Shown: positions 30,318-46,400, counted from the stretch's first letter. The stretch: 64,000 bases of DNA from an uncultured Spartobacteria bacterium (GCA_937919825.1 CALFPA010000131.1:36949-100948); one strand, 5' to 3'. The notes: generated from the letters alone by a model not told the origin. Made by a program: numbers and translations.

Positions 30318-30320
30318 TCC

Positions 30321-31019
30321 TCAGGTTGTAAGGGCTTCGATCGGCGGTGTCATGCATTGTTGTGCGATCCAGGCCGAGGCGACGCTGATGAGCTGGCTGC
30401 AGGTTTCCACGCCCATCTTGATTTTGATCCGCTCGCGGTGGGTATCCACGGTCTTGGGGCTGAGATTGAGTTGCTTGGCGATTCGGCTTGAGGGGAATCC
30501 TTTTCCGAGGAGGCTGAAAATCTCGAACTCCCTCGGGGTGAGAGCCTCTATCCCGGTGCGATTTTTGCGGGATCGGCCGTTCATGTATTCCAACATCTGG
30601 GCCGAGGCGGCCGGGCTGAGATAAATACTACCGCGAAGGACGGTGTGGATCGCTTTGAGCAACTCGTCCCCATCCGCGGATTTCATGATGTAGCCTCGGG
30701 CGCCGATCTCCAGGGCGCGGCGGGCGTAGGTAGATTCCGAATGCATCGAGAGCATGAGCACCGGCAGGTGGGGACAGCGGGCCGCGAGATCTTGCACAAG
30801 TTCAAACCCGCTCCGGCCCGGAAGCGTGACATCGGAAATCACGAGGGCAGGGCAATGGGCGATGGCGGCCGATAAGCCCTCCGCCGCGGTGCCGGCCTCG
30901 CCACAGACCTCCAATTTCGGGTCTGTCTCGATCATTTGGCGCACGCCCACCCGGGCGAGGGGATGGTCATCCACAAGCAGAATCCCGCTTTTTGGTGATC
31001 TTCGGTTGTTTTTCTTCAT
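30321..31019 (-). CDS. NarL/LuxR-family response regulator (REC + HTH)
   Basis: Contains ILLVDDHPLARVGV..LVISDVTLPG (REC) and C-terminal LTPREFEIFSLLGKGFPSSRIAKQLNLSPKTVDTHR (LuxR HTH). Its start overlaps the stop of the upstream kinase (ATGA). Confidence 0.9.
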   Translation of the reverse strand: MKKNNRRSPKSGILLVDDHPLARVGVRQMIETDPKLEVCGEAGTAAEGLSAAIAHCPALVISDVTLPGRSGFELVQDLAARCPHLPVLMLSMHSESTYARRALEIGARGYIMKSADGDELLKAIHTVLRGSIYLSPAASAQMLEYMNGRSRKNRTGIEALTPREFEIFSLLGKGFPSSRIAKQLNLSPKTVDTHRERIKIKMGVETCSQLISVASAWIAQQCMTPPIEALTT

Positions 31020-32665
31020 TTTTTAAAAACGCAATGAACGCTGGTGCCGCTTCCATTGTGGGAGTTGACGCAGACGGTGCCGTGGATGATGGCGGCGCGG
31101 TGTTTCATGATGGTGAGTCCCATGCCGTTCCCTTCGCCTTTGCTGGAATTCTTGTTTTCGATTCCAGAGCCGTTGTCGGTGATGGTGAGGATGCCTTCGC
31201 GTTTCTTAAAATGCAGGGCTACCCGGATGTGGGTGGCTTTGCCGTGCTTGATGGCATTTTGGATCGATTCTTGGGCGATGCGGAAGAGATTCGAAGAAAC
31301 TTCCGGGGAGAACTTGATGCCGGCTTCCGAGCACTCGAATTCACAATTTATTTGGAAAAGCGAGGTGGTGTCGGCGGCGAGTTGCTCCAGGGCCGTGGAA
31401 AGCTCCCCGTTTTCGAGTTCGACCGGGGCGAGACCTCGCGAGAGCAAGCGGGTGTGCTGGATGGAGCGCTGCACGGCTTGGATGATGGCGTGCAGCGAGG
31501 TCTGGACAGGGGAGCTTTTGCCGAGGCGCTTGGCGATGGCTTGGATCGAGTAGAAAATCCCGGCGAGTTCCTGACAAATGCCGTCGTGCAAATCGTGTCC
31601 GAGCCGTCGGTGCTCTCGCTCGCTGACTTTCACCAACTCCCGCTCGAGGTGCTTGCGGATCATGATCTCGTGTTCGAGTTCCTCGTTGATACGGTGGAGG
31701 GTCGTCGTGCGGCTCAGGACCATCTCCTCGAGATCCTCCTTGCTGCGAAGAAGGGCTTGTTCCACCTGCTCGCGGTCACTCACATCATTGAGGAAGCACA
31801 GGATCGATCGGCAGGTGACATTCTCATCAACGAGGCCGGAGAGATACCACTCGCCGTGCAACACATTTCTGTTCCGGTGGATGAATCGGGTGGTCACGAA
31901 TCCACTCATCTGCGTGCAGTTTGCCACGGATTCGTAGGCTTCCTGAAAACGCTCACGGTCCTCGGGGTAAACCAGCGGCATGGGAGCCGTGAGGGGTTGG
32001 CCATCGCGGAATTTCGGCGGGCCGAAAAACTCCTCCGCCTTGTGGTTCCACGAAAGGCACTGCCCTTCGGAATCGAACTCAATCACGGCGAGAGGGGAGT
32101 TGTTCATGTGATAAAGCAAGCGCTGGCCGGCCTCGGCGAGTCCGCTTTCACAGATCCGGTGCCGGGTCAAATCCCGGACGATGGCGATGATGGTTTGCGC
32201 TTCGAGGGTGTCCTGGGATTCCGGGCATGCTCGCACCTCGTAGCGCTTCGCTCCATGGGGTGACTGGATGGTAAACTCCCGGCAGGTTGTCGTGCGAGCG
32301 GCGATCGTGCTATCGATGAGTTTTTTCCAGAATTCACACATGGCCTCGGGCAAGCCGATCTCGCGACAATTTTTTCCAATAAGAAACTCCGGCTTCGTCC
32401 CAAGAATCTCCTCGCTCCGAGGGTTGGCGTAGAGCAGGCAACCGTCCGCGCCGATCCTCAGGATGATGTCGGGCGAATGATCGAGGATCGATCGGTGATT
32501 GGTTTTCTTGGAACCAGGAGGCAGAACCTCTGCTGGGGTGACATCGACCGGCCGAAGAATCTCCCCTGGGTGCAAATCGATCCTGTTGCCAGGTGTGGGA
32601 TGAGGAATGATGGGATGAGTTAGGGAGGAGGTGGGGGATATTGATCCCATGCGTGTGGAATGCAT
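31016..32665 (-). CDS. PAS-domain sensor histidine kinase (HisKA_3/NarX-type)
   Basis: 549 aa with two PAS-like segments. H-box HRRLGHDLHDGICQEL. HATPase motifs ITDNGSGI and GNGMGLTIM. No TM segment seen, so probably cytoplasmic. Confidence 0.88.
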   Translation of the reverse strand: MHSTRMGSISPTSSLTHPIIPHPTPGNRIDLHPGEILRPVDVTPAEVLPPGSKKTNHRSILDHSPDIILRIGADGCLLYANPRSEEILGTKPEFLIGKNCREIGLPEAMCEFWKKLIDSTIAARTTTCREFTIQSPHGAKRYEVRACPESQDTLEAQTIIAIVRDLTRHRICESGLAEAGQRLLYHMNNSPLAVIEFDSEGQCLSWNHKAEEFFGPPKFRDGQPLTAPMPLVYPEDRERFQEAYESVANCTQMSGFVTTRFIHRNRNVLHGEWYLSGLVDENVTCRSILCFLNDVSDREQVEQALLRSKEDLEEMVLSRTTTLHRINEELEHEIMIRKHLERELVKVSEREHRRLGHDLHDGICQELAGIFYSIQAIAKRLGKSSPVQTSLHAIIQAVQRSIQHTRLLSRGLAPVELENGELSTALEQLAADTTSLFQINCEFECSEAGIKFSPEVSSNLFRIAQESIQNAIKHGKATHIRVALHFKKREGILTITDNGSGIENKNSSKGEGNGMGLTIMKHRAAIIHGTVCVNSHNGSGTSVHCVFKK

Positions 32666-32707
32666 AGTTCTTCTTTATTTCCTAAAAATGAGACAACAAG
32701 CTAATAC

Positions 32708-33400
32708 TCATGAGAAGAGTTGGTGGGTGTAGCTCGACTTCCAAGATTCCTTGCTCCGGTCCCCATCGTGAGTTGCGAGGTGGACAAAGCGAGCGCGCAG
32801 GTCGGCCGCGAAATCCTCGACCAACTCGAAGGTCGAAGGCGCCGTGAGGGGTTCCTTTTCCTCACCTGGCCGCCATTCATCGGGATTCTGGGAAGAAGAA
32901 GGGCGGAGAGCGCGTTGCAAATCGGAGGCGGCACTGAGTCGGTGGCTAGCGATCGGGGGATGGCAGAAAAAATCCAGGCCGTTGAGAATGGTCTTTTGCC
33001 GAAGGTAGGCGGCCACCGAGATCGCGCCCGGCCCGACATGGTCGCTGAAAAGTGCGAAGAGCGCGGCGCGTCCGCAGGGATCGAGTTGCAACCAAGACTC
33101 CACCCATTGGCGGAATGCGGATGGGATTGGCTCGCGACCGGAGGCCGAGACGATCACCACATCGGCGAGCGATGAGGCATGGACTGCGGCACGGCGCGAG
33201 TCGCCATCTTGGAGGAGGTCCATTTTCCAGATGTTCACACCGAGCGAGACGGACTCGCCGACTTCCCCGCGAAGAAACTCGCAGGCCCGGAGGGCCCGGG
33301 CGGCGGAGACGAGGTTTTCATAAACGATGACGATTTGAAATTTCCGGTGACCGGGCTTCACACCGGCGATGTCGCTGCATTGTTCGATCAGGTGGTCCAT
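32708..33400 (-). CDS. Hypothetical protein, first gene of the HK/RR/CheBR operon
   Basis: 230 aa, no motif recognised. The N-terminal KFQIVIVYENLVSAARAL..DVVIVSASG stretch hints at a flavodoxin/receiver-like beta-alpha fold. 42-nt gap to the kinase gene. Confidence 0.5.
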   Translation of the reverse strand: MDHLIEQCSDIAGVKPGHRKFQIVIVYENLVSAARALRACEFLRGEVGESVSLGVNIWKMDLLQDGDSRRAAVHASSLADVVIVSASGREPIPSAFRQWVESWLQLDPCGRAALFALFSDHVGPGAISVAAYLRQKTILNGLDFFCHPPIASHRLSAASDLQRALRPSSSQNPDEWRPGEEKEPLTAPSTFELVEDFAADLRARFVHLATHDGDRSKESWKSSYTHQLFS

Positions 33401-33616: not shown

Positions 33617-33817
33617 ATGAAACAAAAACCATTCTTCGACCTCGAAGCGGAAGAGCAGCTGGAACTCTTCGATGTCATCCCCGACATGCCGCTGCCGGGT
33701 CTCCTCGATGATCCAGCCAATGAACCGCACATGGAATGGCTGAAGCGCCAGTCCAATGACGGGCTCCGGATTTTCCTCCAAATCCTCGAAAACACCCAGG
33801 GGTTCCGCCGCTCATGA
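33617..33817 (+). CDS. Small hypothetical protein (66 aa) coupled to cfa
   Basis: ORF 33578..33817 trimmed to ATG 33617 (MKQKPFFDLEAEEQLELFDV). Its stop overlaps the cfa start (ATGA at 33814-33817). Acidic, no known motif. Confidence 0.4.
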   Translation: MKQKPFFDLEAEEQLELFDVIPDMPLPGLLDDPANEPHMEWLKRQSNDGLRIFLQILENTQGFRRS

Positions 33818-34995
33818 GCACCGCCACCGCACCCGCACCTGCGCCGCGTCTCAAACGCGGTGCCGCGCCCGCCAAAGTCGCCCGCGCCGAAAAGATCGTC
33901 ACGGATCTCTTCGCCGAGGCGGATATTCAAATCAATGGAGTCCGTCCCTGTGACATCCGCGTGAATGATTCGCGGTTTTTCGCGAGGGTTCTGGCGGAGG
34001 GAACGCTCGGCTTCGGCGAGTCCTACATGGAATCCTGGTGGGACTGCGACGACATCGAGGAGCTTTGCTTCCGATCGATCCGCAGTCGCATTTACGACCG
34101 CATCCAGCCGAGCTTCGGAGCGATCGTGGAAGTCGCCCTCTCGATTCTTCTGAACCTGCAAACCAAATCCCGCGCCCGGGTGGTGGCTCGGAAGCACTAC
34201 GAACTCGGGAATGATTTTTTCGGATCAATGCTCGATCCCTCGATGCAATACTCCTGCGCCTATTTCCATGGCACGGCGGACCTCGCCACCGCGCAGGAAA
34301 TGAAGATCGAACTCATCTGCCGCAAGCTGGGTCTGAGCCCCGGAATGCGGGTGCTCGATATTGGTTGTGGCTGGGGTGGCCTCGCCCAACACATGGCCTC
34401 GAACTATGGCTGCGAGGTGGTGGGGCTGACCATTTCGGAGGAGCAGCGCCGCTACGCCAACAACCTCTGCGCGGACCTGCCGGTGGATATCCGATTGCAG
34501 GACTACCGCGATGTGGATGGCGTCTATGACCGCATCGTGAGCGTCGGAATGTTCGAGCATGTGGGGCCAAAAAATCACCTGACCTACATGAAAAAAGTCC
34601 GCCGTTGCCTCAAGCCGGACGGGCTTTTTCTCCTCCACACGATCACCGCGAATGAAATCCGGCGGACATGCGACCGGTGGATTTCGAAATACATCTTCGC
34701 GAATTCCATGGTCCCAACCGCCTCGGAAGTGCTCCAGGCGTCGGAGGGATTATTCGTCACCGAGGACCTCCACAACCTGGGATTATACTATGTGCCGACG
34801 CTCCGTGCGTGGGAGTCGGCGTTCATGAAGTCCCGCGAGGAATTCCGTTTCCGCTACGGCGAGGAATTCGTCCGAATGTGGAGACTTTACCTACTGAGTT
34901 GCTCCGGCGCTTTCCGCGCAAGAAGCCTGCAAGTTTTTCAATTCCTCCTCTCTCCCGAAGGCGTGGAAGGCCACGAGCCACTTCGCTTCTCCTAA
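33814..34995 (+). CDS. cfa: Cyclopropane-fatty-acyl-phospholipid synthase
   Basis: 393 aa. Contains HYELGNDFF..MQYSCAYF, SAM motif VLDIGCGWGGLA and SVGMFEHVG. Confidence 0.9.
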   Translation: MSTATAPAPAPRLKRGAAPAKVARAEKIVTDLFAEADIQINGVRPCDIRVNDSRFFARVLAEGTLGFGESYMESWWDCDDIEELCFRSIRSRIYDRIQPSFGAIVEVALSILLNLQTKSRARVVARKHYELGNDFFGSMLDPSMQYSCAYFHGTADLATAQEMKIELICRKLGLSPGMRVLDIGCGWGGLAQHMASNYGCEVVGLTISEEQRRYANNLCADLPVDIRLQDYRDVDGVYDRIVSVGMFEHVGPKNHLTYMKKVRRCLKPDGLFLLHTITANEIRRTCDRWISKYIFANSMVPTASEVLQASEGLFVTEDLHNLGLYYVPTLRAWESAFMKSREEFRFRYGEEFVRMWRLYLLSCSGAFRARSLQVFQFLLSPEGVEGHEPLRFS

Positions 34996-35008: not shown

Positions 35009-35055
35009 CGCGGCGGGGTTCATCACCCCATACCCCGCCGCGACCGGGCTTTTTA
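35009..35055 (+). terminator. Hairpin plus T-run downstream of cfa
   Basis: Perfect 10-bp stem cgcggcgggg/ccccgccgcg with a 14-nt loop. TTTTT lies 7 nt after the stem, which is not an ideal geometry. Confidence 0.45.
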
Positions 35056-35133
35056 AGAGCCTTGCCGATCAACTTCTATTTGAGCACAGGGCTTCATCTC
35101 CTCTTCAAATTGAGATTGGAAAGGCGCTTCGCG

Positions 35134-35209
35134 AGGAGGGCTCTGCTTGTCAGAGCCGCATCAGCGTGATGGCGCGAGCCGCCCCGGTCCTGACAAGCAG
35201 GACCCTCCT
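35134..35209. repeat. Inverted pair of the short hairpin repeat (copies 1 and 2)
   Basis: 35134-35157 aggagggctctgcttgtcagagcc and 35186-35209 ggtcctgacaagcaggaccctcct, in opposite orientation, 28 nt apart. Same family as 22670-22693, with different but still pairing stem bases. Confidence 0.8.
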
Positions 35210-35394
35210 GGGGGTTTCGTAAAAACAAGGTGGTTTTGAATCCAGGAGGTGATTCCGGTCAAAGTTTAGGTGCGATTACCGGCGTTATAAAACCTGCCCC
35301 ATTCGCCGCAGTCGGACGCGGTGATTTATCTAACTACACAGTCGCGTCAGCACTCATTCTTCCAAGAACGATTGACTCAGCGATTCCAAGGTAT

Positions 35395-35904
35395 TCATGC
35401 CCGGTGGATTCTTTTCAGCAGTTCGTCCTCCGCGATTTGGCGCTCGCGCGTGCGTCCCTCCCTCAGCGCATCAATCAAAGCTAAAATCTCGTAAAGTCGT
35501 GCATCCTGGCGAGCGGCCATCGGGGCGGATGGGTGCAGTGGCTCCACTCCGTATCCGAGTTTTTCCCCCGAGGCGTTCGGCCACACTGGGATGTTTTCCT
35601 TATCGAAGGAAATGAATTCAGCCACTGGTGGTGCCGCGAAGGATGTCGGAATACCTCGGGTCAGCCCGCCCATGACCACTGGAAAAACATAGCGCAAACC
35701 GTGAATCAGAAATTCCCGCACCGCGCCTTGCCGAATCCTCCGCTCTTTTGGCTCAACCAAGCCCGAGTGTCCGAGCCGCTGCACGGCGGCGTGGAATTCG
35801 GACGCGCTCATTCCCAGCTCTCCCGCTACGACAGCATAAGGCCGGGCGCTCTCCTCGAGAGTCAGTTTGGCTAGTGCATAAATATCTAAGGACTTTGCGA
35901 TCAT
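35395..35904 (-). CDS. Hypothetical protein with N-terminal winged-helix/HTH-like segment
   Basis: 169 aa. VAGELGMSASEFHAAVQRLGHSGLV looks like an HTH recognition region. The rest is unassigned. Sits in a visibly lower-GC patch, divergent from the EPS operon. Confidence 0.5.
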   Translation of the reverse strand: MIAKSLDIYALAKLTLEESARPYAVVAGELGMSASEFHAAVQRLGHSGLVEPKERRIRQGAVREFLIHGLRYVFPVVMGGLTRGIPTSFAAPPVAEFISFDKENIPVWPNASGEKLGYGVEPLHPSAPMAARQDARLYEILALIDALREGRTRERQIAEDELLKRIHRA

Positions 35905-35927
35905 CTCTGTTGCTTAGTTGAATACGC

Positions 35928-35946
35928 TATTCGCGAATGGCGAATA
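35928..35946. promoter_or_regulatory. Palindrome TATTCGC-N5-GCGAATA upstream of the wHTH gene
   Basis: 7-bp perfect inverted repeat, 24-42 nt upstream of the ATG at 35904. Candidate operator. No experimental or comparative support. Confidence 0.3.
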
Positions 35947-36315
35947 TGCAACACCGAATTATCTCCTGCCAGAAGTAGAGTCTTCACCTACCGAACGGCT
36001 CGGGAGGTTCTGATACCAAAGTCTCCAAGGTTTTGGATTATCGGATGATTTCGCTTCGATGGGTCTCGTGGAGTGCGCCCTCGCGGGGCGATGGAAAAAA
36101 TCCGGCTAGAGGCCGCTGGAATCTCTCCAAGTCGGGCGCGGGGCGCACCCGACAGCACCCGAGGGCGGGCGCGCTCCCAAGGTCCAGACACTACCGCGCC
36201 GTCGTCTAAAATTCCAAAAGCCCACAGCCGTTGGCCTGATCACTGCGGAAATGGCGGTGGAGTTCGGGACATCACCCCATACCGCGCCAGCGTGCCCCTT
36301 TCTAAACTGCCCACC

Positions 36316-38601
36316 GTGAAAATCAAAAATCCTGAATTCCGAATCCTCACGATCGCCGCAGCGGTCGCTTTCTCCATGCTCCCCGTCCACTCCGCTCCGC
36401 TCGAATCGGGACCGAGCAAGGGCACATTTGATCTCCCACTTCTGCAATCCGGCGATGGCCGGCTCGAGGGAGTTCTGGCCGAGCGGGAATTTTCCTTCCG
36501 CCTGCCCGAGCATGTTCAACTCGATCCGGGCAGCGAGATGGTTCTGGGCTTCCGCTCCTCGCCGCTCCTCCTCGATGTCTCGACTTTTACTGTCACCATC
36601 AATGAGCGCCAAATCGCCAGCGCCCGACTCGGGCATGAGGCCGACGGGATCGAGAAGCAAACCGAGAACAAGCTCGTCGTTCCGATTCCCGAGGGGGTGC
36701 TCCAAGCGGGCTGGAATCGACTCACGGTTCGCTGCCTTCTGCAAACCACCCAGACCCTCTGTCGCGATGTGGACAATCCCGCGGCTTGGATGGAATTCGG
36801 GCCGGAGTCAGTCGTTCGCGTGGCCTACACCAATTTGCCGCTCTTCACGGAAATTCAGCGTTTCCCGGACTCGATCACCGAGCCCGTCCTCATGCAGCTC
36901 CCGGAGTTCCGGTCCCCCGATAAAAAAACCAAGGCCGCACCCGTTGTCTCGCTGCTGCTGGCAGAGGAGTCGGGTGATCCGGAACTCCGGTCTTTTCTCA
37001 TCGCCGCGGCCCGTCTTGGGCAGACGGTTTATACCCCGCCAGAGGCCGTTTCTGTCGGTGACATTGGAGAATTCTCGGATATCTGCGAACGCCGCAACGG
37101 GGTGCTGATCGGCACGCGCGACCAGTTGGCGGAGCAACCTCTGCCGGGCCATATCAGGAAAGCCCTCTCGGAACTCCAACCGGGTCAGGGATTCCTCGCC
37201 GAGTTGATCTATGGGCCGCCGGAAACCACCCAGCGCCGCTGGATCATTCTGAGTGGTGCCGACGGTGCCGGCCTGGAAAAAGCCGCCCTCACGCTCGGCA
37301 GTGCCGTCGCCCTGCGGAATGTGCCATCGAACCCCTGGATCATCGCCAAGGAGCCGGAGATTTCCCCGTTGGTGGAAAAAATCTCCCAGCCCGAGGTGGG
37401 GCCGCTGAAGCTCTCCTCGCTGGTAAACGGAGAAATCCTCCTGCGCGGAATCTTCCGTAATAGCACCTCGCGCCGAATCTCTTTTCCGCCAGGTTTTGAA
37501 ACAACCAAAGCGGGCTATGTGGAATTCGATTTCACCCACGCCGATCAGCTCGATAAAGCCTCCGCGTTCGAAGCGCGCTTGAACGATGCGGTTCTGGGCA
37601 GCGTAGCCCTTGCTCCCAATCATTCGGGTCGGGTCAAACAGCGTCTCTCGATTCCAGCTGGAATCGTTGGCCGGGACCCTTCGTTGATGACGGTATCGAG
37701 CTATCTGGACATCGGTAGTGTGGATTGTGCGCACCGAAACGAGGAGCGGGCTTGGCTGAATATCACGGGCGAGACCGTGGTGGACCTTCGCACGACTCCC
37801 TTGAAGATCGATGACCTCTCGCGCTTGAACCAGCTCTGCCTGCGGGATGCTTTCCTTCGCCGAGCGGCTCTGCTGGTGCCCGAGGATTCGGATTCCACTC
37901 GCAATGATCTGATCAAGTCGATCGGCATGCACCTGGGGGCTCGCCTTCCGGACATGCCGGTTCTTTGGCCGCAAGTCGCGACCTTTGGCCCTGAAATTCC
38001 TCCGGAGCCGCATCGCGTCGAAAAACGCTCCGGCTTGGTGCTGGGGTCCGCCTTTCAGTGGCCCGAAGCCTTCGGAGAAAACAGCCGACTCATCGTTCAG
38101 GGTGGGGGAATCAACCGCGACGAAATCATCCTTCGCGGGGAGAAAGTGCCGGTCACTGATTTCGATCCCAATCTCAGCTTTGTGCAACTCGTGGCCTCGC
38201 CATGGACGGATGGGGAGTTTTTTGCCGCGATCGGGGGACTCGAGAACTACGGCGGCAACGCCACGATCGCTCTCATCAACAATCCCGGGATTTTCGAGCA
38301 GCTGCGAGGCACCATCTCGGCGCTGGATGGAGATTCACGCCTTCTCACCTACGATGTGAGGTCGGTCCACGAGGTTTCGCTTTCGGATAAGATGCGCTTG
38401 GCGTTTTCCCCTGTCCGGCGCGTGGAGGATTTGGAGGCCAAAGAGATCAAGATTACCGAGGCAGGCTTGGCGGCAACGGCCTTGAATGTCGGCATCGGCA
38501 CGGGGGCCATGGCGCTTCTGGCGGGTCTGTTTCTCATCCAGCGGTTCGTCGTTCGTCGCCGCAAAAAAAATCATTCCGCCGAGGAGGGAGACGAGCTGTG
38601 A
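36316..38601 (+). CDS. BcsB-like periplasmic polysaccharide-synthase subunit with C-terminal TM anchor
   Basis: ORF 36073..38601 trimmed to in-frame GTG 36316, which gives signal peptide VKIKNPEFRILTIAAAVAFSMLPVHSA. About 760 aa with two repeated modules (REFSFRLPEHVQLDPGSEMVLGFRSSPLLLDVSTFTVTINERQI and GYVEFDFTHADQLDKASAFEARLNDAVLGSV). C-terminal TM GTGAMALLAGLFLIQRFVV followed by RRRKKN. Size and topology fit BcsB. Confidence 0.65.
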   Translation: MKIKNPEFRILTIAAAVAFSMLPVHSAPLESGPSKGTFDLPLLQSGDGRLEGVLAEREFSFRLPEHVQLDPGSEMVLGFRSSPLLLDVSTFTVTINERQIASARLGHEADGIEKQTENKLVVPIPEGVLQAGWNRLTVRCLLQTTQTLCRDVDNPAAWMEFGPESVVRVAYTNLPLFTEIQRFPDSITEPVLMQLPEFRSPDKKTKAAPVVSLLLAEESGDPELRSFLIAAARLGQTVYTPPEAVSVGDIGEFSDICERRNGVLIGTRDQLAEQPLPGHIRKALSELQPGQGFLAELIYGPPETTQRRWIILSGADGAGLEKAALTLGSAVALRNVPSNPWIIAKEPEISPLVEKISQPEVGPLKLSSLVNGEILLRGIFRNSTSRRISFPPGFETTKAGYVEFDFTHADQLDKASAFEARLNDAVLGSVALAPNHSGRVKQRLSIPAGIVGRDPSLMTVSSYLDIGSVDCAHRNEERAWLNITGETVVDLRTTPLKIDDLSRLNQLCLRDAFLRRAALLVPEDSDSTRNDLIKSIGMHLGARLPDMPVLWPQVATFGPEIPPEPHRVEKRSGLVLGSAFQWPEAFGENSRLIVQGGGINRDEIILRGEKVPVTDFDPNLSFVQLVASPWTDGEFFAAIGGLENYGGNATIALINNPGIFEQLRGTISALDGDSRLLTYDVRSVHEVSLSDKMRLAFSPVRRVEDLEAKEIKITEAGLAATALNVGIGTGAMALLAGLFLIQRFVVRRRKKNHSAEEGDEL

Positions 38602-39830
38602 GGCTTGCCGCATTGTTTCTAGGTTTCGCGTTAGCGGGAACGGCCTTGGCTGGTGGGAGCACCCTGCTGATCTACGATTCGCCTTCCAAACCGTTCTCGT
38701 TGCAGAACGAGATCGAGCCCCTTGCGATCCTGCTGGCGCGCTTTGACCCCACCATCGAACGCCGCATGGGGAGTGAGGTTCGTCTGGCGGATATGGAAAA
38801 AGCCGCCCGGATCGTGGTGGCGGGCATGGGAGCATTTCCGGCCATCTCAGCCCCGTGTCTTGAATATCTCGAGAAAACCAAAAAGCCACTCGTGGGTGTT
38901 GGGGCGGCGGCGACTCTGGCTATTCCAGGTTCTCCCCGTCCATCCAAGCCATCCGTGTCGTTGCCAAAGGGCCAACTCGTTTACCTCGGCCGGGAATGGC
39001 CTGCCCAGGTCGATCCCTATTTTCCGGCGGTCGTCGATTCCTCGCTGATCCTTGCTCGGATTCATGGGGCGAATGGCGAGAAGCCGCTTTGCTGGAGGTC
39101 TGGCAATCGTCTGGGATTTGCCGCGCTTCCTACGGCACCACCGCTCTCGATGGTTTTCTCGGATGCGGTGATGGACCTCTTCACCCCGGGAGTCAGCACC
39201 GCGCCGGGGATTCTTTTCATCGTTCGGGACTTCAATCCCTCGTGTTCCCCCGAGTCCTTCCGGAGGTTGGTGGATTATTTTTCCCACGACCGGATTCCCT
39301 TCGCGGTGACGGCGCAGATGCGAGACCTCCCCGAGGGAACGACCCCCATGCCGCGTGAGGAATTTCTCGCGGCGCTCCAATACGCCGAGATGCACGGCGG
39401 AAGAATTTTCATCCGGGGAGGCGAGGGGCTCAAGGACGCCGAGACATTCGCTCCCGTGAAACCTTGTGGGATCGAAGAACCCGCCCAGCCGGACCCGACG
39501 GCCATTCAAATTGGGCAACCGACTTTTGCTCGAACGCCGGACGATTCCAGTAGTCCCTTTTTTATCCATGCCCCGATGCGTCTCGCGGGCGGGGGGTGGT
39601 TGTGGCCGGCCAATGTGCGCGGGGGATTGGATGGGGACCTCGTTACCTCCATCCGCACGCAAGTCCGGGACATCATTCCATTCCGGGGAGCTGTCGCGGG
39701 CGTCGTGATCCCCGCCTGGCTTCCCTTCCAATCCATGCGTGCCCTGGCTGATGCCGCACGATCTCCGGGCATCGCCCTCATCGACCCACTCACCGCAGTT
39801 CCTGAACCCCTTTCACAACATCAACCATGA
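38598..39830 (+). CDS. Periplasmic protein, DUF2334 / polysaccharide-deacetylase-like (tentative)
   Basis: GTG start overlaps the upstream stop (GTGA). Signal peptide MRLAALFLGFALAGTALA. The stretch ILFIVRDFNPSCSPESFRRLVDYFSHDRIPFAVTAQM..EEFLAALQYAEMHGGRIFIRG resembles the DUF2334 core seen in Gram-positive EPS operons. Pattern-level call only. Confidence 0.45.
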   Translation: MRLAALFLGFALAGTALAGGSTLLIYDSPSKPFSLQNEIEPLAILLARFDPTIERRMGSEVRLADMEKAARIVVAGMGAFPAISAPCLEYLEKTKKPLVGVGAAATLAIPGSPRPSKPSVSLPKGQLVYLGREWPAQVDPYFPAVVDSSLILARIHGANGEKPLCWRSGNRLGFAALPTAPPLSMVFSDAVMDLFTPGVSTAPGILFIVRDFNPSCSPESFRRLVDYFSHDRIPFAVTAQMRDLPEGTTPMPREEFLAALQYAEMHGGRIFIRGGEGLKDAETFAPVKPCGIEEPAQPDPTAIQIGQPTFARTPDDSSSPFFIHAPMRLAGGGWLWPANVRGGLDGDLVTSIRTQVRDIIPFRGAVAGVVIPAWLPFQSMRALADAARSPGIALIDPLTAVPEPLSQHQP

Positions 39831-41422
39831 GATTCCTCCTTCCCTGCATCCTGGCCATTGCCAGCATCCACGCCCAACCGCTCGAACTCCTCGAGCAGGC
39901 CACGACTCTCTCCAACGAGGGATCCCACGCCGCTGCGGCTGATCTTCTCAAGCAAGCCAACACCGCCGATCCCGGCAACGAGGCGATATCGTTTCGATTG
40001 GCGAGCGCCTTGGTTTTCAGTCGCCGCCACACTGAGGCGAGGGTCCTATTGGGTCGTCTCTCCAAATCCTGGAATCCGGAAATGGCAACCATGGCGGCAT
40101 CGAGCTTGGCGGCTCTGGATCGTGCCGAAGAGCTGGAGCGCGCGGCCAAGGCGAAACCACCGAGCGCCGCGCAGTTGCAGGCCCGGCGGGACTATCTCGA
40201 ACGGAAAGCCCGGCTGGACCGCCGGCAGACGGTTTATGATCTCCTCGCCAGCGGAGAAGATGCAAAAGCTCTGACTGCGATCGAGTCTTTGGAGCGGAAA
40301 AACGAGGCGACGCCCGATCTGCTGCGGGAAAAGGCGGGCGTTCTAGATCGGATGGGGCGCACCGCCGAGGCCATCGAGATATCGAGGCCATTGGCGGAGT
40401 CCGAGAATCCCTCCAAGCCATCCCAACTCCAACTCGCCTCCCTGCTCATGAAGGAGGGAAAGGCTCGGGAGGCCTTTCAAATTTGGAGCGGCCTCCGGGA
40501 TCAATCCGGTGACGCCCCGGAGGGTCGGCAAGCAGCCATGGAAATCGACGCCCTGGCGGCTCCCTACGATCTCGATCGCTGGTCGTGGGGGGAACTCGAT
40601 CTCTACGCGAGCTATCTCCAGCGGTTCAACATCGGGGTGGCCAATGGACGCCTTCGCCAAGGAACCTTTGTGCCCGGAGCGCGGTGGATCGAGCCCTTCG
40701 TGCAGGCGGATTTTAGTTTGGACTCCGATCCCTACGGCACCGGAGCCGAGGGATTATCGACGATCTACAACGAAAACCTCGCAGGCTTCCACGCCGGCGC
40801 GAGGATTCGGCCATTCGCCACGCAGTCGTTCACCCTTTATGCGCTGGGGGGGATTCAAAAAGACCTTCGAGGAACCGAGCAACATCGAGGGCAGTGGTTT
40901 TGGGAACTTATTACCGGTGTGAATGGATTCTGGGCGTGGGGCCCCGGAAAGAAATGGGCATTTTCCGACCTGCAAGCGGTCACGCCGGGAGGCCTTCCGG
41001 TGATTCCCCGATCCGTCGCCAACTGGATGCCGAATACCTGGAGTCCCGCCCAGTTTCGCTGGGATTGGTTTATCGAGGCTGGAGGCGACGCGGCCTACTA
41101 CACGCGGCTTGCGGACTGCATTGCCTACGGGCAATCGCGGCAAGGATTCCGCTTCGCGCAGTTCGGCAAGGCGGCGGCCCTCGATGCCTATGCCTTCGAA
41201 AACCTGACGATGGATACGGAGGGGAACTACTACGACAATTACTTCGAGGCCGGCCCGGGAGTGCGCTTCGTCACCTCGCCGGTGGGCGCGGCGATTTTCA
41301 CCACCAGCGTCGAATATGTCGTCGGCAGTTATCTGGGCAGGAATGAGGGGGACACGCGAGGCAACCTCGACACCACCTACTCGGATTTCCGAATCACCGC
41401 CTCGTTATCCCTTCGCTGGTAA
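39827..41422 (+). CDS. Outer-membrane export component: N-terminal TPR region + C-terminal beta-barrel (NfrA/PgaA/BcsC class)
   Basis: ATGA overlap with the upstream gene. Signal peptide MRFLLPCILAIASIHA. Helical TPR-like N-terminal half. C-terminal half is rich in alternating aromatic/Gly beta-strand patterns and ends ITASLSLRW (terminal aromatic residue). Confidence 0.6.
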   Translation: MRFLLPCILAIASIHAQPLELLEQATTLSNEGSHAAAADLLKQANTADPGNEAISFRLASALVFSRRHTEARVLLGRLSKSWNPEMATMAASSLAALDRAEELERAAKAKPPSAAQLQARRDYLERKARLDRRQTVYDLLASGEDAKALTAIESLERKNEATPDLLREKAGVLDRMGRTAEAIEISRPLAESENPSKPSQLQLASLLMKEGKAREAFQIWSGLRDQSGDAPEGRQAAMEIDALAAPYDLDRWSWGELDLYASYLQRFNIGVANGRLRQGTFVPGARWIEPFVQADFSLDSDPYGTGAEGLSTIYNENLAGFHAGARIRPFATQSFTLYALGGIQKDLRGTEQHRGQWFWELITGVNGFWAWGPGKKWAFSDLQAVTPGGLPVIPRSVANWMPNTWSPAQFRWDWFIEAGGDAAYYTRLADCIAYGQSRQGFRFAQFGKAAALDAYAFENLTMDTEGNYYDNYFEAGPGVRFVTSPVGAAIFTTSVEYVVGSYLGRNEGDTRGNLDTTYSDFRITASLSLRW

Positions 41423-41429
41423 TCACACC

Positions 41430-43958
41430 ATGGACATTTTCAATTCACTCATCCTCTTGATGGCCTACACGGCCGCCGTCGGTTTTTTCCTTTTTGGAAT
41501 CGACGATTTATTTTTCGACCTTCAAATCCTCCGACGGCTGCGAGGGCGACGCGGAGAGCCTCCGGTGCCGATCGAAACCCTTCGCAATGAGCCGGAAAAA
41601 CTCATCGCGGTTTTCATTCCAGCATGGAACGAAGGGGGAGTCGTCAACCGCATGGCCGACTATGCGAGAAAGACGCTCCTCTATGAGAATTACGATCTTT
41701 TTATCGGCGTCTATGCCAATGATCCGGAAACCAACCGGTGCGTCGATGAGTTGGTGAAAGTCTCCCCGCGTGTGCACAAAGCGGTCGTGCCGCACGCCGG
41801 GCCGACCTCGAAGGCGGATTGCCTGAACCATATTTTCAACACCATGCGGGCCTGCGAAATCCCAGGCCGGCGCGAATACGCGATCATCGCCCTCCACGAC
41901 GCCGAGGACATCCTGCACCCGCTCACGCTGAAGGTTTACAACCACTATGTCCCCGAGATTTTGGACATGGGGCAGATTCCTGTTTTCCCCCTCGAGCTGC
42001 ATCCGTTGACGAATTGGGTTGGCAATACCTACCTCGATGAGTTCGCAGAGCTGCATGCGAAGGACATGTATGCCCGCGAAGCAATCGGTGGAGTCGTGCC
42101 CTCGGCAGGCGTCGGGACTGCCTTCTCACGCCAGTCGATCGATAAACTCGCGGAGGAGAACAACGGCGTGCCATTTCCTGAAGGAAGTCTGGCTGAGGAT
42201 TACTTTGTGGGAATGAAACTCGCCGGGATGGGCTTTAGGACAGGCTTCATTGAGCATCCAATCGAAAGGCAAGTGGTGCTCCGCGACGCAAAGGGTCGGG
42301 AGATTTCGAAAAAAATCATCAAGGAACGCGTGGCGGTGCGGAAGAATTTCCCCAGACGCTTCTTTCAGGCTGTTCGCCAGAAAGCCCGCTGGATTGTTGG
42401 CACGGCATTTCAAAGCTGGGAACACCAGGGATGGAAGGGGGGGGGGCTTGCTGCAAAATACACGCTGGCTCGCGATCGCCGGGCGCCACTCGTCCATACC
42501 ATCAATGCCGCCGGATACTGCGCGGTGGCCTATGTAATCGCGGATATCGGAATCCGCCACACGGTATTGGCCAACTCGATATATCTGCCGCCACTGTTTG
42601 AAGCGAACAGCCTTCTTTGGAAGCTCGTTCTCGTGGATACCGCCCTGCTTTGCTACCGGGTCGGGCAGAAGGTTTACCATGTCACCGATGTTTATGGATG
42701 GAAGCAGGGCATCTTTTCGATCCCACGCTATCCGATGGTGAATTTCATCAACATGGGAGCCACCTTCTGGGCGATTGTCGTCTACTCGCGCCATCGCCTC
42801 CTTGGAAAACCTCTCGCCTGGTCCAAAACGAAACACATTTTCCCCGGAAGTGCGGAACTCGAGGAATTCTCCCGCTCCGTGGAAGATCTGCTGATCGACG
42901 AAGGCTATGTCCTTCGCAACGACCTGGAGAACATTCTGGTAAAAAACCGTGATCGCTCCGCTCCGCGGTCGCTACTCGAGATGGGGCTGATCGATGAGGA
43001 GCAATTCTGCGATATCTGGGCGAAGCATTCCGGCCTCGATGTCGGCGATGTCGATGTGGCCAGCATCGACCTGAGTCTCCTCGATTCGTGGCCTGAAAAA
43101 AAGGCCCTTCGCCACGAGGCCATGCCCCTGCAGCGTCGTGATGATGGACGCACGGTCTTCGCCTTTGCGGAGCCCCCCACCGAGCGGGATTTGAATCGCG
43201 TGGTGGAAACAGCAGGAACCCCGGTGGAGCCAGTCCTGACCGCGCCGACTCAAATCACAAATCTTCGCAACCACGCCTATCCGCGCCGGATTTTGAAGCC
43301 GCGTGCATTTCCCCTCTTGCTGCCCGAGTCTCCCGCCGGCCTATCCCATGCCGCTCCGAGCATTTCGATCATTCGCGCTCTGGGGCCGTTATTTTGCGAA
43401 CTTCATGGGCTGCTGCCCATGCTGGATGGATCGATCGCCGCTCGCTCCCCCGTTCACCCCGGCATTGCGGCCAGGATGCACAAGATTCTTGGCACCGAGG
43501 CGCCCCTGGTTTCCGACAAAACACGGGGTTTCCAAATAGCATGGCGCAAATTTGAGCGCCTCCGAATGCCTCATTCCTCGCTTTTGAAGGAACTCGCCGA
43601 GGCTGAGATTCTGACCAAGGAAAACACCGAGCGTATCCAAAATATGGCCCGCCTTGTCAGCACGCCGATGGATCGCATGCTCGTTCAACTCGGCCTCGCA
43701 AACCGCAAACAAGTTTACACCGCCCTGCGTCGTTGCGGGGGCGTGGATGTCGCCGCGGATCATGATCATCAGGTCGCTCGGGGTTGTGAGGACCTTCTTG
43801 CTCCCGGATTCAGCGCCAAGACCGGAGTCGTCGTCCACCATCTCGATGAGGACGGCTTGGTCCTTCGTGTGAGCGGCATGCTGGCCCCCAGCGAACTGCG
43901 GGAAATCTTTGATCGCTGTGAGGGTTGGCCCCTCCGCTTTGAACTTCTCGCTCCCTGA
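41430..43958 (+). CDS. NfrB-like processive family-2 glycosyltransferase with two C-terminal MshEN/T2SSE_N-like domains
   Basis: ORF 41316..43958 trimmed to ATG 41430 (MDIFNSLILLMAYTAAVGFF, TM1). GT2 motifs AVFIPAWNE, ALHDAED and AEDYFVG. QxxRW signature QKARW at 42378-42392. About 3 further TM segments. Residues about 481-615 and 715-842 resemble type II secretion ATPase N-terminal (MshEN) domains. Confidence 0.8.
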   Translation: MDIFNSLILLMAYTAAVGFFLFGIDDLFFDLQILRRLRGRRGEPPVPIETLRNEPEKLIAVFIPAWNEGGVVNRMADYARKTLLYENYDLFIGVYANDPETNRCVDELVKVSPRVHKAVVPHAGPTSKADCLNHIFNTMRACEIPGRREYAIIALHDAEDILHPLTLKVYNHYVPEILDMGQIPVFPLELHPLTNWVGNTYLDEFAELHAKDMYAREAIGGVVPSAGVGTAFSRQSIDKLAEENNGVPFPEGSLAEDYFVGMKLAGMGFRTGFIEHPIERQVVLRDAKGREISKKIIKERVAVRKNFPRRFFQAVRQKARWIVGTAFQSWEHQGWKGGGLAAKYTLARDRRAPLVHTINAAGYCAVAYVIADIGIRHTVLANSIYLPPLFEANSLLWKLVLVDTALLCYRVGQKVYHVTDVYGWKQGIFSIPRYPMVNFINMGATFWAIVVYSRHRLLGKPLAWSKTKHIFPGSAELEEFSRSVEDLLIDEGYVLRNDLENILVKNRDRSAPRSLLEMGLIDEEQFCDIWAKHSGLDVGDVDVASIDLSLLDSWPEKKALRHEAMPLQRRDDGRTVFAFAEPPTERDLNRVVETAGTPVEPVLTAPTQITNLRNHAYPRRILKPRAFPLLLPESPAGLSHAAPSISIIRALGPLFCELHGLLPMLDGSIAARSPVHPGIAARMHKILGTEAPLVSDKTRGFQIAWRKFERLRMPHSSLLKELAEAEILTKENTERIQNMARLVSTPMDRMLVQLGLANRKQVYTALRRCGGVDVAADHDHQVARGCEDLLAPGFSAKTGVVVHHLDEDGLVLRVSGMLAPSELREIFDRCEGWPLRFELLAP

Positions 43959-43967
43959 TTTCTTATC

Positions 43968-45134
43968 ATGAAAAAAACGATCGCCGTCATTGTCGGAACC
44001 CGTCCGGAAGCCATCAAGCTCGCTCCCGTAATCCGTGCCCTCGGGTTTTCCGACCACCTCCAACCCATAACCATTTCGACCTCCCAGCACGGCGAGATGG
44101 TGGATCAAATCTTCGAGAATTTCGGCATCACGGCCGATGTGGATCTTCAAGTGATGCAACCACGCCAGAAGCTCTGGGACCTTACCGCGAGCCTCTCCAC
44201 AAAACTCGGCGCGTATTTTTCCGATCATCCCGTGGATGCCGTGCTCGTCCAAGGCGACACGACCTCCGCTCTCATCGGGGGGCTCGCCGCTTTCTACCAC
44301 AAAATTCCTGTCGGGCATGTCGAGGCCGGCCTGCGCTCGCATGATCGCTACTCGCCATTTCCCGAGGAATTGAATCGCACCCTCCTCTCCCGCATTGCGC
44401 AATGGCACTTCGCTCCGACCGCCTATGCCGCGGATTTGCTTCGAGGCGAGAACATCGACAACGCCTCGATTTATATCACCGGCAATACCGTTGTGGACGC
44501 CCTGCATTGGATGTCGCGCCACCTCCGCCACCGCGAAATTCGTCCCGGCATTCTGAATGGGCAGCGAAAACTCGTCCTTGTCACCTGCCATCGCCGCGAA
44601 AACATCGGGCTCCCCATGCGATCCGTCGCACTCGCCATCAAGCACCTCGCCGACTCGCATCCCGAGGCCCACTTTCTTTTTCCCATGCACCCGAATCCCG
44701 GAGTCCGTGAGTTGATCCAGCCCATTCTCTCCAAGCAAAACGGCGTCACACTTTGCGAGCCTCTGAAATACGAGGAATTCCTCTCCGCCTTGCACCAATC
44801 CTATTTTGTGATCTCCGACTCCGGCGGGGTCCAAGAAGAAGCCACCGCCCTCGGCAAGCCCGTCCTCGTCCTACGGCGCGAAACCGAGCGCCCCGAAGGC
44901 GTCGAAGCCGGCACGCTTCGTCTCGTCGGAACGGATGTCCAGGAAATCCTCCGTGCGGGCCACGAGCTTTTGGTGAACCCCGAAAGCCACGGAGCGATGT
45001 CCAACGGATCCGGAGTTTTCGGTGATGGGAAAGCCGCTCAAAAAATCCAAAAAATCCTCGAGCAAAACCTCACCACAGCCAATCGCATCCTGCCCTTCAA
45101 GAAACCGACAGGTAAACTGGTTTTGATGGAGTAG
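43968..45134 (+). CDS. wecB: UDP-N-acetylglucosamine 2-epimerase (non-hydrolysing)
   Basis: 388 aa. Contains MKKTIAVIVGTRPEAIKLAPV, VLVQGDTTSAL, HVEAGLRS, PFPEE.NR and SDSGGVQEE. Confidence 0.92.
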   Translation: MKKTIAVIVGTRPEAIKLAPVIRALGFSDHLQPITISTSQHGEMVDQIFENFGITADVDLQVMQPRQKLWDLTASLSTKLGAYFSDHPVDAVLVQGDTTSALIGGLAAFYHKIPVGHVEAGLRSHDRYSPFPEELNRTLLSRIAQWHFAPTAYAADLLRGENIDNASIYITGNTVVDALHWMSRHLRHREIRPGILNGQRKLVLVTCHRRENIGLPMRSVALAIKHLADSHPEAHFLFPMHPNPGVRELIQPILSKQNGVTLCEPLKYEEFLSALHQSYFVISDSGGVQEEATALGKPVLVLRRETERPEGVEAGTLRLVGTDVQEILRAGHELLVNPESHGAMSNGSGVFGDGKAAQKIQKILEQNLTTANRILPFKKPTGKLVLME

Positions 45135-45274: not shown

Positions 45275-45364
45275 TGGCGGAAGGGGCGGGATTCGAACCC
45301 GCGGTAGCTTGCGCTACGTTCGATTTCGAGTCGAGTGCCTTAAACCGGACTCAGCCACCCTTCC
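45275..45364 (-). tRNA. tRNA-Ser (anticodon CGA)
   Basis: The reverse complement folds as a cloverleaf. Acceptor GGAAGGG/CCCTTCC. Anticodon loop CTCGAAA (anticodon CGA). Long variable arm GTAGC-GCAA-GCTAC. T-arm GCGGG-TTCGAAT-CCCGC. Encoded CCA. Confidence 0.9.
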
Positions 45365-45453: not shown

Positions 45454-45607
45454 CGCGAATCCAGAAGAATTAACCACGGAGGACACAGAGAGCACAGAGG
45501 GTGAGTGAATTGCTCCGAATTGTAGGGGGCGGTTTTGTCCGAACCGCCGCTTTCATAAACCGCTCCTGTGAATCCTGTTCTCCTGTCTAAAAATCCGTTT
45601 TCGGGCT
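45454..45607 (+). repeat. About 160-bp extragenic repeat element, copy B
   Basis: Homologous to 22188-22350. Internal hairpin GGCGGTT-ttgtccg-AACCGCC occupies the position where copy A has GGATCG-ttttgtt-CGATCC. Lies between tRNA-Ser and the DUF2233-like gene. Confidence 0.8.
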
Positions 45608-46400
45608 AATCGCGGTATTGGTTGGTGACTTCGATAAAATTTCGGACGCGTTTGATTTCGGAGAGGGAGATGGTGTTGCGGGCCCAGAGGGTGCTGGAGG
45701 ACCCACCGTCGAGGTTCAGGGCCGTGGTGGGTTTCCAGGAGCCGAGGATTTTTGGGAGCGCGAGGATTTCGGCGGTGTCGGCGAGGGAGACGGAGGTCAG
45801 GTAGAGGAGGGCAGCTTGGTTGGCGGAGCCGGTGGCGACGGCCGTGCGGCGGGCGATTTTTTCGGCGTTCAAGCCGGGGACGGGGGCGGAATTTTCGATG
45901 AGCATCGGGCCGCATTGGATGGCTTCGCGGTAAGCGCCGGGATTGGGGTCGAAACGGGCGGAGCGGAAAATCGACAGGGTGCCTTTCGGGGAGGTGGCCA
46001 CGATGCCGCTGAGAATTTTCGCTTTTTTGAATTTTTGGCGGGTTTTTCCCTCCGAAATGACGAGGCCGACGGGGGTGAAATCGGGCTCGAAATACCCGCC
46101 GTTGACTCCGCCGATCGCTTGGCGGGATTCCAAAAGGCTCGCGAGCCGGGTTTCGCCGGGTTTCGGGCTATCCACCAGGCGAATGGTGTGGGCGCGGGTG
46201 TTGAAAACGATGGCAACGAGCCGGGCGTGGCCATCTGGGTTTTTCCGCTGCAACTGGGTTTCCAAAACCTCGACGCCGTCGGCGGGGGTTCCGAGGATTT
46301 GGGTGGAGAGGATTTCCCAGTCGGCTCGGGTGGTTCCACAGAACGCAAGAAGGGCGGCAACGAATGCCGCCCTTTTGCTTTTTAGGATGCTTTTCAACAA
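45606..46400 (-). CDS. Secreted phosphodiester glycosidase-family (DUF2233-like) protein
   Basis: 264 aa with a TTG start. Signal peptide LKSILKSKRAAFVAALLAFCG. Contains GGVNGGYF, CGPMLI and LNLDGGSSSTL, typical of the NAGPA/DUF2233 fold. Confidence 0.65.
   Translation of the reverse strand: MLKSILKSKRAAFVAALLAFCGTTRADWEILSTQILGTPADGVEVLETQLQRKNPDGHARLVAIVFNTRAHTIRLVDSPKPGETRLASLLESRQAIGGVNGGYFEPDFTPVGLVISEGKTRQKFKKAKILSGIVATSPKGTLSIFRSARFDPNPGAYREAIQCGPMLIENSAPVPGLNAEKIARRTAVATGSANQAALLYLTSVSLADTAEILALPKILGSWKPTTALNLDGGSSSTLWARNTISLSEIKRVRNFIEVTNQYRD

Follow-up and report, generated by a model that had tools for sequence, protein, structure and literature searches.

A five-gene operon of lake Verrucomicrobiota likely encodes an exopolysaccharide synthesis and export machine with an NfrB-type synthase and a divergent MshEN-like tail

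What might five tightly coupled genes at positions 36316 to 45134 of a 64,000-nucleotide stretch from an uncultured Spartobacteria bacterium (GCA_937919825.1 CALFPA010000131.1:36949-100948; the whole stretch is called the window here) produce, and how would their product be controlled? A preliminary description, made from the sequence alone, had read them as a complete Gram-negative synthase-dependent secretion system for an N-acetylmannosamine (ManNAc)-type polymer, joining Pss-type and Nfr-type components in a combination not known to have been characterized. Our analysis makes it likely that the operon encodes a machine with which a freshwater bacterium of the Terrimicrobiaceae (Chthoniobacterales, Verrucomicrobiota) synthesizes and exports an exopolysaccharide (EPS) in a synthase-dependent manner. 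The parts list of such a machine is present, and its completeness is plausible. The kind of machine is not new, since known parts from Escherichia coli Nfr, Listeria Pss, and Acinetobacter PGR are recombined in it; what is most notable about it is the clade-wide loss of the glycines that bind cyclic di-GMP (c-di-GMP) and the presence of an accessory protein that looks like a pseudo-enzyme. The five open reading frames (ORFs), all intact and on the same strand, are the following.

36316 to 38601, plus strand: P1, 761 amino acids (aa), GTG start, BcsB/PssD-like periplasmic subunit.
38598 to 39830, plus strand: P2, 410 aa, secreted two-domain protein; GTGA overlap with P1.
39827 to 41422, plus strand: P3, 531 aa, outer-membrane protein with tetratricopeptide repeats (TPRs) and a beta-barrel; ATGA overlap with P2.
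41430 to 43958, plus strand: P4, 842 aa, NfrB-like processive glycosyltransferase family 2 (GT2) synthase; 7-nt gap after P3.
43968 to 45134, plus strand: P5, 388 aa, WecB; 9-nt gap after P4.

The ORF calls bore out both the start/stop coupling and the start codons of the preliminary description. The GTG start of P1 is backed by the alignment of its orthologues, and the alignment of P4 with E. coli NfrB begins at the first residues. A longer P1 ORF, starting at 36073, was rejected because the additional stretch lies inside a strain-specific 1.25-kb insertion that is missing in 95%-identical relatives. No glycoside hydrolase, diguanylate cyclase (DGC) or phosphodiesterase (PDE), or PilZ protein is encoded within the five-gene operon; for all but PilZ, this had been stated before.

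A profile search for P1 homologues led to 35 genome loci, every one of them in metagenome-assembled genomes of Chthoniobacterales, Terrimicrobiaceae, or "Spartobacteria," mostly lake-derived, and two of them about 95% identical to the window. As determined by tblastn, the order P1-P2-P3-P4-P5 was kept in every sufficiently long locus except one (L026), while the identity of P1 across the 35 syntenic loci ranged from 95% down to 36%. The retention of the five-gene order over such a divergence indicates a functional unit and rules out a chance arrangement. Operon synteny extends to the metagenome loci L037, L040, L045, and L047 (L040 without an adjacent wecB), and the soil (type-A) relatives L040 and L042 carry a four-gene core, again with no adjacent wecB; outside the nearest subclade, the flanking genes vary. 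The P1 subfamily is, by profile search, small: 212 representatives were found at an E value of ≤1e-30 among 1.84 billion cluster representatives, a few dozen of them close full-length relatives and the rest a BcsB-like tail of 680 to 800 aa scoring about 135 to 190 bits. The exceptional locus, L026 (9914-14130), lies at the same genomic position, behind the same upstream block of CheB/R, response regulator, histidine kinase, and CMAS genes, and looks like a remnant or variant. Besides wecB, it retains P1 in intact form (768 aa) and an ORF of 230 aa that represents P4 by its MshEN-like tail only, and it has neither P2 nor P3 nor the GT2 domain.

The presumptive synthase, P4, aligned with E. coli NfrB at 35% identity over 640 aa (BLASTP E value, 1e-107) and consists of a GT2 domain preceded by an N-terminal transmembrane (TM) helix and followed by an MshEN-like tail at the C terminus. 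The GT2 domain matched Pfam Glyco_tranf_2_3 (E value, 2e-34), and the D,D,D and QKARW motifs attributed to it earlier were located as NDPE97, DAED157, AEDY255, and QKARW317. P4 thereby keeps the equivalents of D169, D267, and W330, the catalytic residues required for NfrB function (PMC8669469), which are invariant across the NfrB-like proteins compared. It scored below both NfrB equivalog cut-offs (NF008411, 445.7 versus 1170 bits; PRK15489, 469.8 versus 537 bits). On homology, we assign P4 as a true NfrB homologue. Its parts are as follows.

41604 to 42536, plus strand: GT2 catalytic domain of P4 (residues 59 to 369).
42885 to 43286, plus strand: MshEN-like module 1 of P4 (residues 486 to 619), with the glycines replaced in motif I (RSVE) and motif II (SAPR).
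43593 to 43946, plus strand: second complete MshEN-like module of P4 (residues about 722 to 839).

Pfam recognized one MshEN domain in P4 (residues 536 to 619; E value, 2e-9) and gave no MshEN match on the tail alone; a custom hidden Markov model (HMM) of module 1 was required to find the second complete module (E value, 5e-5), so that both of the MshEN-like domains described earlier could be retrieved. A truncated module lies between them, at residues about 640 to 700. Orthologues of P4 with 887 to 891 aa have three full modules, and the module 1 HMM matches their tail twice. The helical half of the middle module of these orthologues, a segment of about 48 aa, is missing in the window's subclade; the site of this deletion is at 43287-43350 (P4 residues about 620 to 640) in the window, and it is shared by L004 and L029 (842 to 845 aa).

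MshEN domains bind c-di-GMP via two RLGxx...G... motifs, and the substitutions G11L/I and G40I abolish binding by MshE (PMC5013675). The corresponding residues of NfrB (VcMshE G11/G40 = NfrB G491/G519) are important as well, since G491L abolishes N4 infection and G519S does so in part (PMC8669472). In the P4 protein of the window, Glu and Pro stand in place of the first and second signature glycines, respectively, with a 2-residue deletion, and both motif Arg residues are lost. The two glycine positions are occupied by E and by a gap or P in 14/14 distinct clade members, compared with G/G in 39 of the 41 other NfrB-like proteins, including those of Ralstonia, Variovorax, and L052. Among 21 sequences of the window's clade (the window and 20 loci), the first position is E in 20 and G in 1, and the second is P in all 21. 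The extra modules do not have the glycine either, the third one bearing Asp instead, and the NCBIfam c-di-GMP_motif model gave P4 17.7 bits, with a cut-off of 38. Since both c-di-GMP-binding glycines are replaced across the BcsB-linked clade, activation probably does not proceed via canonical c-di-GMP binding, and the tail is probably not a canonical c-di-GMP receptor; another ligand or a protein partner is possible. The strong conservation of the tail within the clade indicates that it is functional.

How the tail would act instead can be proposed only tentatively. In the BcsB/DUF2334-linked clade, it may have been repurposed to sense another ligand or a phosphorylated receiver domain (REC) protein. 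The EPS system would then be independent of c-di-GMP and gated by a phosphorelay, and its scaffold would be a pseudo-enzyme. In 15 more distant Chthoniobacterales loci (L012:18919-19302, L036:11181-11639, and 13 others), a REC-only gene of about 127 to 152 aa follows wecB on the same strand at a distance of 17 to 77 nt; it is only a hint of another regulatory input. Somewhat less probable to us is a canonical c-di-GMP-activated system of the Nfr type, as implied by the preliminary description, the MshEN-like modules of which still bind the nucleotide, with the cyclases encoded elsewhere in the genome. The significant Pfam match, the retention of most hydrophobic motif positions in module 1 (L6, L7, G10, L11, L12, L17, and L21), the conservation of the modules in the clade, and the activation of E. 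coli NfrB by c-di-GMP (PMC8669469, PMC8669472) would all fit such a system, but it would have to operate with Glu and Pro at the very positions where the substitutions named above abolish MshE binding or NfrB-dependent infection, with neither motif Arg, with a motif score well under the cut-off, and with Asp at the glycine position of the third module.

The presumptive periplasmic partner of the synthase, P1, has the signal peptide, the C-terminal TM anchor (residues 723 to 741 by hydropathy), and the BcsB relationship that had been described for it. It matched Pfam BcsB (PF03170) with an E value of 5e-26, so that its BcsB-like nature was upheld, and the profile of its family matched the solved E. 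coli BcsB with an E value of about 2e-8. Residues 73 to 186 and 341 to 506, one segment from each half of the protein, each match the same N-terminal module of the solved BcsB, and the internal duplication is thereby confirmed. For the comparison with Listeria, the pss operon was taken from chromosome pieces labelled "plasmids" (NZ_LR134402.1 and NZ_CP030101.1; 0.57 to 2.9 Mb), in which PssB is annotated as DUF2334, PssC as GT2, and PssD as BcsB-like. The P1 family aligned with PssD over 590 columns (hhalign, 99.2%; E value, 3e-19), and PssD was also the sole match of P1 in a tblastn search of the plasmid collection. A close relationship to the BcsB-like protein of Variovorax was rejected (hhalign, 3%), and so was an equivalence of P1 or P2 to YbcH, which is a DUF4434 protein with no similarity to either.

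The DUF2334-like core ascribed to P2 stood in part. DUF2334 was matched by all 15 P2 orthologues (best E value, 1.6e-8), whereas the P2 protein of the window reached 15 bits, under the cut-off of 26, and has lost the canonical motifs. Its AlphaFold2 (AF2) model (pLDDT, 87) has two domains, an N-terminal one with a GATase1/ThuA-like flavodoxin fold and a C-terminal one that is CE4-like; the best Foldseek match was PelA (9cgy), followed by HisH-type GATase and chitin deacetylase (2vyo). A search of the P2 profile against PDB sequences gave no significant match, only the fold search being informative. The P2 family matched Listeria PssB weakly, the N-terminal domain included (hhalign, 67%; E value, 5e-5).

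The canonical DUF2334 partners of NfrB (in L052 and L101; 128 to 164 bits) bear the motifs HGxxH, EFW, PHY, and PENLG. In the window's P2, HGLHH/HGYSH has become RGGEG, the EFW segment is deleted (about 48 residues), PHY is lost, and PENLG reads PANV, while the P2 proteins of the soil relatives are intermediate between the two states. The orthologue alignment of the P2 family contains no invariant His, and the Asp plus His-His metal/catalytic motif of CE4 and canonical DUF2334 proteins is missing from P2, the fold being retained. P2 most likely keeps the fold but not the chemistry and probably serves to bind or scaffold the polymer rather than to catalyze a reaction. A literature search on DUF2334 was uninformative.

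P3 has a signal peptide, TPR Pfam matches at the N terminus, and a C-terminal end reading ...SLRW. Its AF2 model (pLDDT, 81) comprises about 13 TPR-like helices (residues 1 to 245) and then a beta-barrel with about 12 strands (residues 253 to 531) that ends in the terminal Trp, in keeping with the TPR plus beta-barrel protein proposed earlier. The best Foldseek matches were to E. coli BcsC (9b8h/9b8a; E value, 2e-9), followed by PgaA (4y25), BcsC (6tzk), and generic porins. P3 as an NfrA homologue was rejected, since hhalign gave 0.9% against E. coli NfrA and NfrA_C (PF13283) had no match in P3 at an E value of 0.1; the NfrA-like protein of Ralstonia gave 25%, in the TPR part only, and the NfrA type was rejected here too. 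In L052, nfrB adjoins the gene of a small TPR outer-membrane protein, to which P3 is homologous (hhalign, 98.5%). With P3 akin to this protein and not to NfrA or NfrA_C, two unrelated outer-membrane protein families, the NfrA_C type and the small P3 type, can be taken to serve NfrB-type synthases. The Nfr/Pss mosaic of the preliminary description therefore holds for the PssD-like P1, the weakly PssB-like P2, and the NfrB-like P4, but not for P3. The homology tests against PssD, PssB, and NfrB place a reading of Pss-type accessories with an Nfr-type synthase on tested ground.

The identity of the fifth protein as WecB was likewise corroborated: P5 scored 424.8 bits against the TIGR00236 wecB equivalog, the cut-off of which is 210, compared with only 80 bits for NeuC, and matched Pfam Epimerase_2 with an E value of 3e-105. 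By these profiles, it is a non-hydrolysing UDP-N-acetylglucosamine (UDP-GlcNAc) 2-epimerase, and from it we infer that the polymer contains ManNAc. The competing possibility, which we consider unlikely and rank slightly below that of c-di-GMP activation, is a polymer that is not ManNAc-based, WecB serving another pathway or a primer and the product being of the GlcNAc or glucose type, like poly-N-acetylglucosamine (PNAG) or cellulose. It would account for the four-gene core without an adjacent wecB in the soil loci L040 and L042. BcsB and DUF2334 partners also accompany synthases of other polymers, BcsB being associated with cellulose, lectin data point to Gal/GalNAc in the Bacillus Yda product (PMC13274460), and even for NfrB itself, the chemistry of the product has never been worked out. 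What speaks against it is the recurrence of wecB beside nfrB-like genes across many unrelated lineages and in varied gene orders, the fact that in all Chthoniobacterales loci it is translationally close to P4 (9-nt gap), and the WecB dependence reported for both the Nfr and PGR glycans (PMC8669472, PMC8669469, PMC12507263): the Nfr glycan needs WecB but not the remaining enterobacterial common antigen pathway (PMC8669469, PMC8669472), and a single-nucleotide polymorphism in the wecB homologue blocks the PGR receptor (PMC12507263).

In the EPS machine that we favor, WecB, identified as the epimerase, would provide the donor by turning UDP-GlcNAc into UDP-ManNAc, and P4 in the inner membrane would polymerize the sugar and translocate the chain, yielding a presumably ManNAc-containing product. 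The tail-anchored P1 would be placed on the synthase at its periplasmic face, where it would guide the nascent chain, by analogy with BcsA-BcsB. P2 would bind or scaffold the polymer and may dock on the TPR array of P3, as PelA does on PelB, and the P3 TPRs together with P2 would hand the chain to the P3 barrel for passage across the outer membrane.

Several points weigh against this scheme or parts of it. The ManNAc content of the polymer derives from the presence of WecB alone, and the soil relatives have no wecB next to their four-gene core. The barrel of P3, with its approximately 12 strands, is smaller than those of the BcsC and PgaA structures it matched, and two of its loops are poorly modelled. 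The non-catalytic role of P2 would follow only from its loss of residues that the DUF2334 family conserves, and an activity of DUF2334 itself has never been demonstrated. As the other hydrophobic positions of MshEN are kept, non-canonical c-di-GMP binding may occur, and the window's own subclade lacks the REC gene. Finally, the clade is known from sequence and predicted structure alone. A decaying or non-functional relic, to which the lost catalytic-type motifs of P2, the lost MshEN glycines, the 48-aa deletion in P4, and the loss of P2, P3, and the GT domain in L026 could point as signs of pseudogenization, is very improbable in view of five intact ORFs in the same order over 95% to 36% identity, the high conservation of the degenerate regions themselves in the clade, the invariant GT2 catalytic residues, and the confident AF2 models of P2 and P3.

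The operon was then set beside known and newly found systems in a survey of nfrB neighborhoods, based on a metagenome scan with the NfrB profile, local HMM searches, and annotated proteobacterial replicons. The enterobacterial type is nfrB-nfrA-ybcH, with YbcH belonging to DUF4434, and a widespread type is wecB-nfrB-nfrA-ybcH. A Ralstonia megaplasmid (L118) carries nfrB, the gene for a short NfrA_C outer-membrane protein, wecB, one further gene, and that for a canonical DUF2334 protein. L052 (8639-15109) and L054 combine wecB and nfrB with genes for an outer-membrane protein of the small TPR type and for a canonical member of DUF2334, and in Variovorax (L119), the order is wecB, a BcsB gene, an nfrB-like gene, and the gene for an outer-membrane protein of the NfrA_C type. 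In the window type, genes for the BcsB-like, DUF2334-like, and small TPR outer-membrane proteins precede the nfrB-like gene, with or without wecB. A wecB gene adjoins the nfrB-like gene in most non-enterobacterial loci, and a BcsB-like gene co-occurs with an NfrB-like GT2 gene in the Chthoniobacterales loci and in Variovorax. As judged from these neighborhoods, NfrB-type synthases are modular, with interchangeable BcsB-like, DUF2334, and DUF4434 accessories and one of two outer-membrane families.

With E. coli Nfr, the operon shares the synthase-dependent principle, the NfrB homologue with the same GT2 motifs and the GT2-TM-MshEN layout, the link to or dependence on WecB, and an exporter composed of TPRs and a barrel. 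In E. coli, nfrB-nfrA-ybcH and an unlinked wecB make the N4 glycan receptor, whereas in the window wecB lies inside the operon. The outer-membrane protein of the window, with 531 aa, is not of the NfrA_C type, no YbcH/DUF4434 gene is present, BcsB-like and DUF2334-like subunits are added, and the synthase, which falls below the NfrB equivalog cut-off, replaces the MshEN glycines G491 and G519 and has extra MshEN-like modules. The betaproteobacterial nfr clusters of Variovorax and Ralstonia resemble the window in that a BcsB or a DUF2334 accessory adjoins NfrB and WecB, but neither has both accessories, their outer-membrane proteins are of the NfrA_C type, and the MshEN G/G pair is kept.

Likeness to pssA-E of Listeria monocytogenes and ydaJ-N of Bacillus lies in the triad of DUF2334-like, GT2, and BcsB-like proteins and in the identical two-domain layout of P2 and PssB. 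The operon differs in having an NfrB-type synthase (P4 matched PssC with an E value of 0.007 over 128 aa, a generic GT2 similarity only), in lacking the PssA membrane protein, the degenerate-GGDEF receptor (PssE/YdaK), and a glycoside hydrolase, and in adding a Gram-negative outer-membrane exporter and WecB. The Bcs, Pga, and Pel systems share the general plan, in which a GT2 in the inner membrane works with a periplasmic partner and an exporter made of TPRs and a barrel, with P3 resembling BcsC/PgaA, P2 resembling PelA/CE4, and P1 resembling BcsB. Unlike Bcs, however, P4 has no PilZ or Cellulose_synt match, the operon has no GH8 (BcsZ) gene, and P3 is BcsC-like in fold only; relative to the three systems together, the operon lacks BcsZ or a PgaB/PelA hydrolase domain, P2 has no CE4 metal/catalytic His, and the barrel is much smaller.

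The combination, which the preliminary description did not know to have been characterized, has precedents at the level of its components. In Achromobacter xylosoxidans, nfrA, nfrB, and wecB lie in a cluster with genes for O-acetyltransferases and a BcsB homologue (Sellner 2021, PMC8669472), and the wecB-bcsB-nfrB-nfrA set found here in Variovorax is similar. In the PGR locus of Acinetobacter baumannii (pgrA-G, 2025), the synthase is a relative of NfrB, BcsA, and PgaC; PgrD is homologous to BcsB and PgrF to WecB, PgrG is a porin, PgrE is like YbcH and the PgaB C terminus, and PgrA is degenerate and DGC-like. Both pgrD and pgrF are genetically needed for phage adsorption, and a ManNAc-containing EPS has been proposed (PMC12507263). 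Over 359 aligned residues, the synthase PgrC shares only about 16% identity with the NfrB of Pseudomonas soli in a structural alignment (PMC12507263, supplementary table). All five PGR roles (synthase, BcsB, WecB, porin, and periplasmic accessory) are present in the window, the roles being compared by description; PgrE is YbcH-like and P2 DUF2334-like, and PGR has in addition the DGC-like PgrA. The parts list thus corresponds to an already named system, whereas the family membership of each part does not.

Upstream of the operon, an insertion of about 1.25 kb (35021-36288) separates P1 from the gene for a CMAS-like methyltransferase (33814-34995). It does not occur in L002 and L003 (95% identical), in which the gap between the CMAS gene and P1 is about 78 nt, and it is bounded by a 19-nt direct repeat, CATCACCCCATACC(C/G)CGCC. 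It holds one ORF, at 35395-35904 on the minus strand, encoding 169 aa with a weak AsnC/NirDL-type helix-turn-helix match, and it displaces whatever promoter drove the operon. The following promoter candidate lies within it.

36185 to 36212, plus strand: sigma-70-like promoter match, tentative; the sole match upstream of P1, inside the strain-specific insertion.

This site has no statistical weight, as the promoter scan upstream of P1 found 1 site versus 2.8 in shuffled sequences; in the terminator scan, sites were no commoner than in shuffles, and no riboswitch, for c-di-GMP or other, was found upstream of the operon. Farther upstream, at 27807-33400 on the minus strand, are genes for a CheB-CheR-PAS fusion, a REC-LuxR response regulator, a PAS histidine kinase, and a 230-aa protein with no Pfam match, which form a block with the CMAS-type gene. 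This block is syntenic with the operon in the nearest subclade only (L002 to L004, L006, L026, L029, and L032) and could be a transcriptional regulator of the EPS operon. At the other end, a tRNA-Ser(cga) gene (45275-45364, minus strand) closes the five-gene block; past it, convergent with the operon, lies a gene with a NAGPA-type phosphodiester glycosidase domain (45606-46400, minus strand), which is also found in L002. The flanking genes were rejected as parts of the system, because the upstream block is syntenic in the nearest subclade only and the neighbors in distant loci (e.g., DXP synthase) are unrelated.

Synthase-dependent EPS systems (Bcs, Pga, Pel, Alg, and Nfr) are central to biofilm and phage-receptor biology, and to our knowledge nearly all that is known of them comes from Proteobacteria and Firmicutes. 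The operon described here would be a conserved, uncharacterized member of these systems in abundant freshwater Verrucomicrobia, in which it could set surface properties, aggregation, and phage susceptibility in lakes. The replacement of the glycines throughout the clade offers a clean natural experiment on the control of MshEN-gated synthases.

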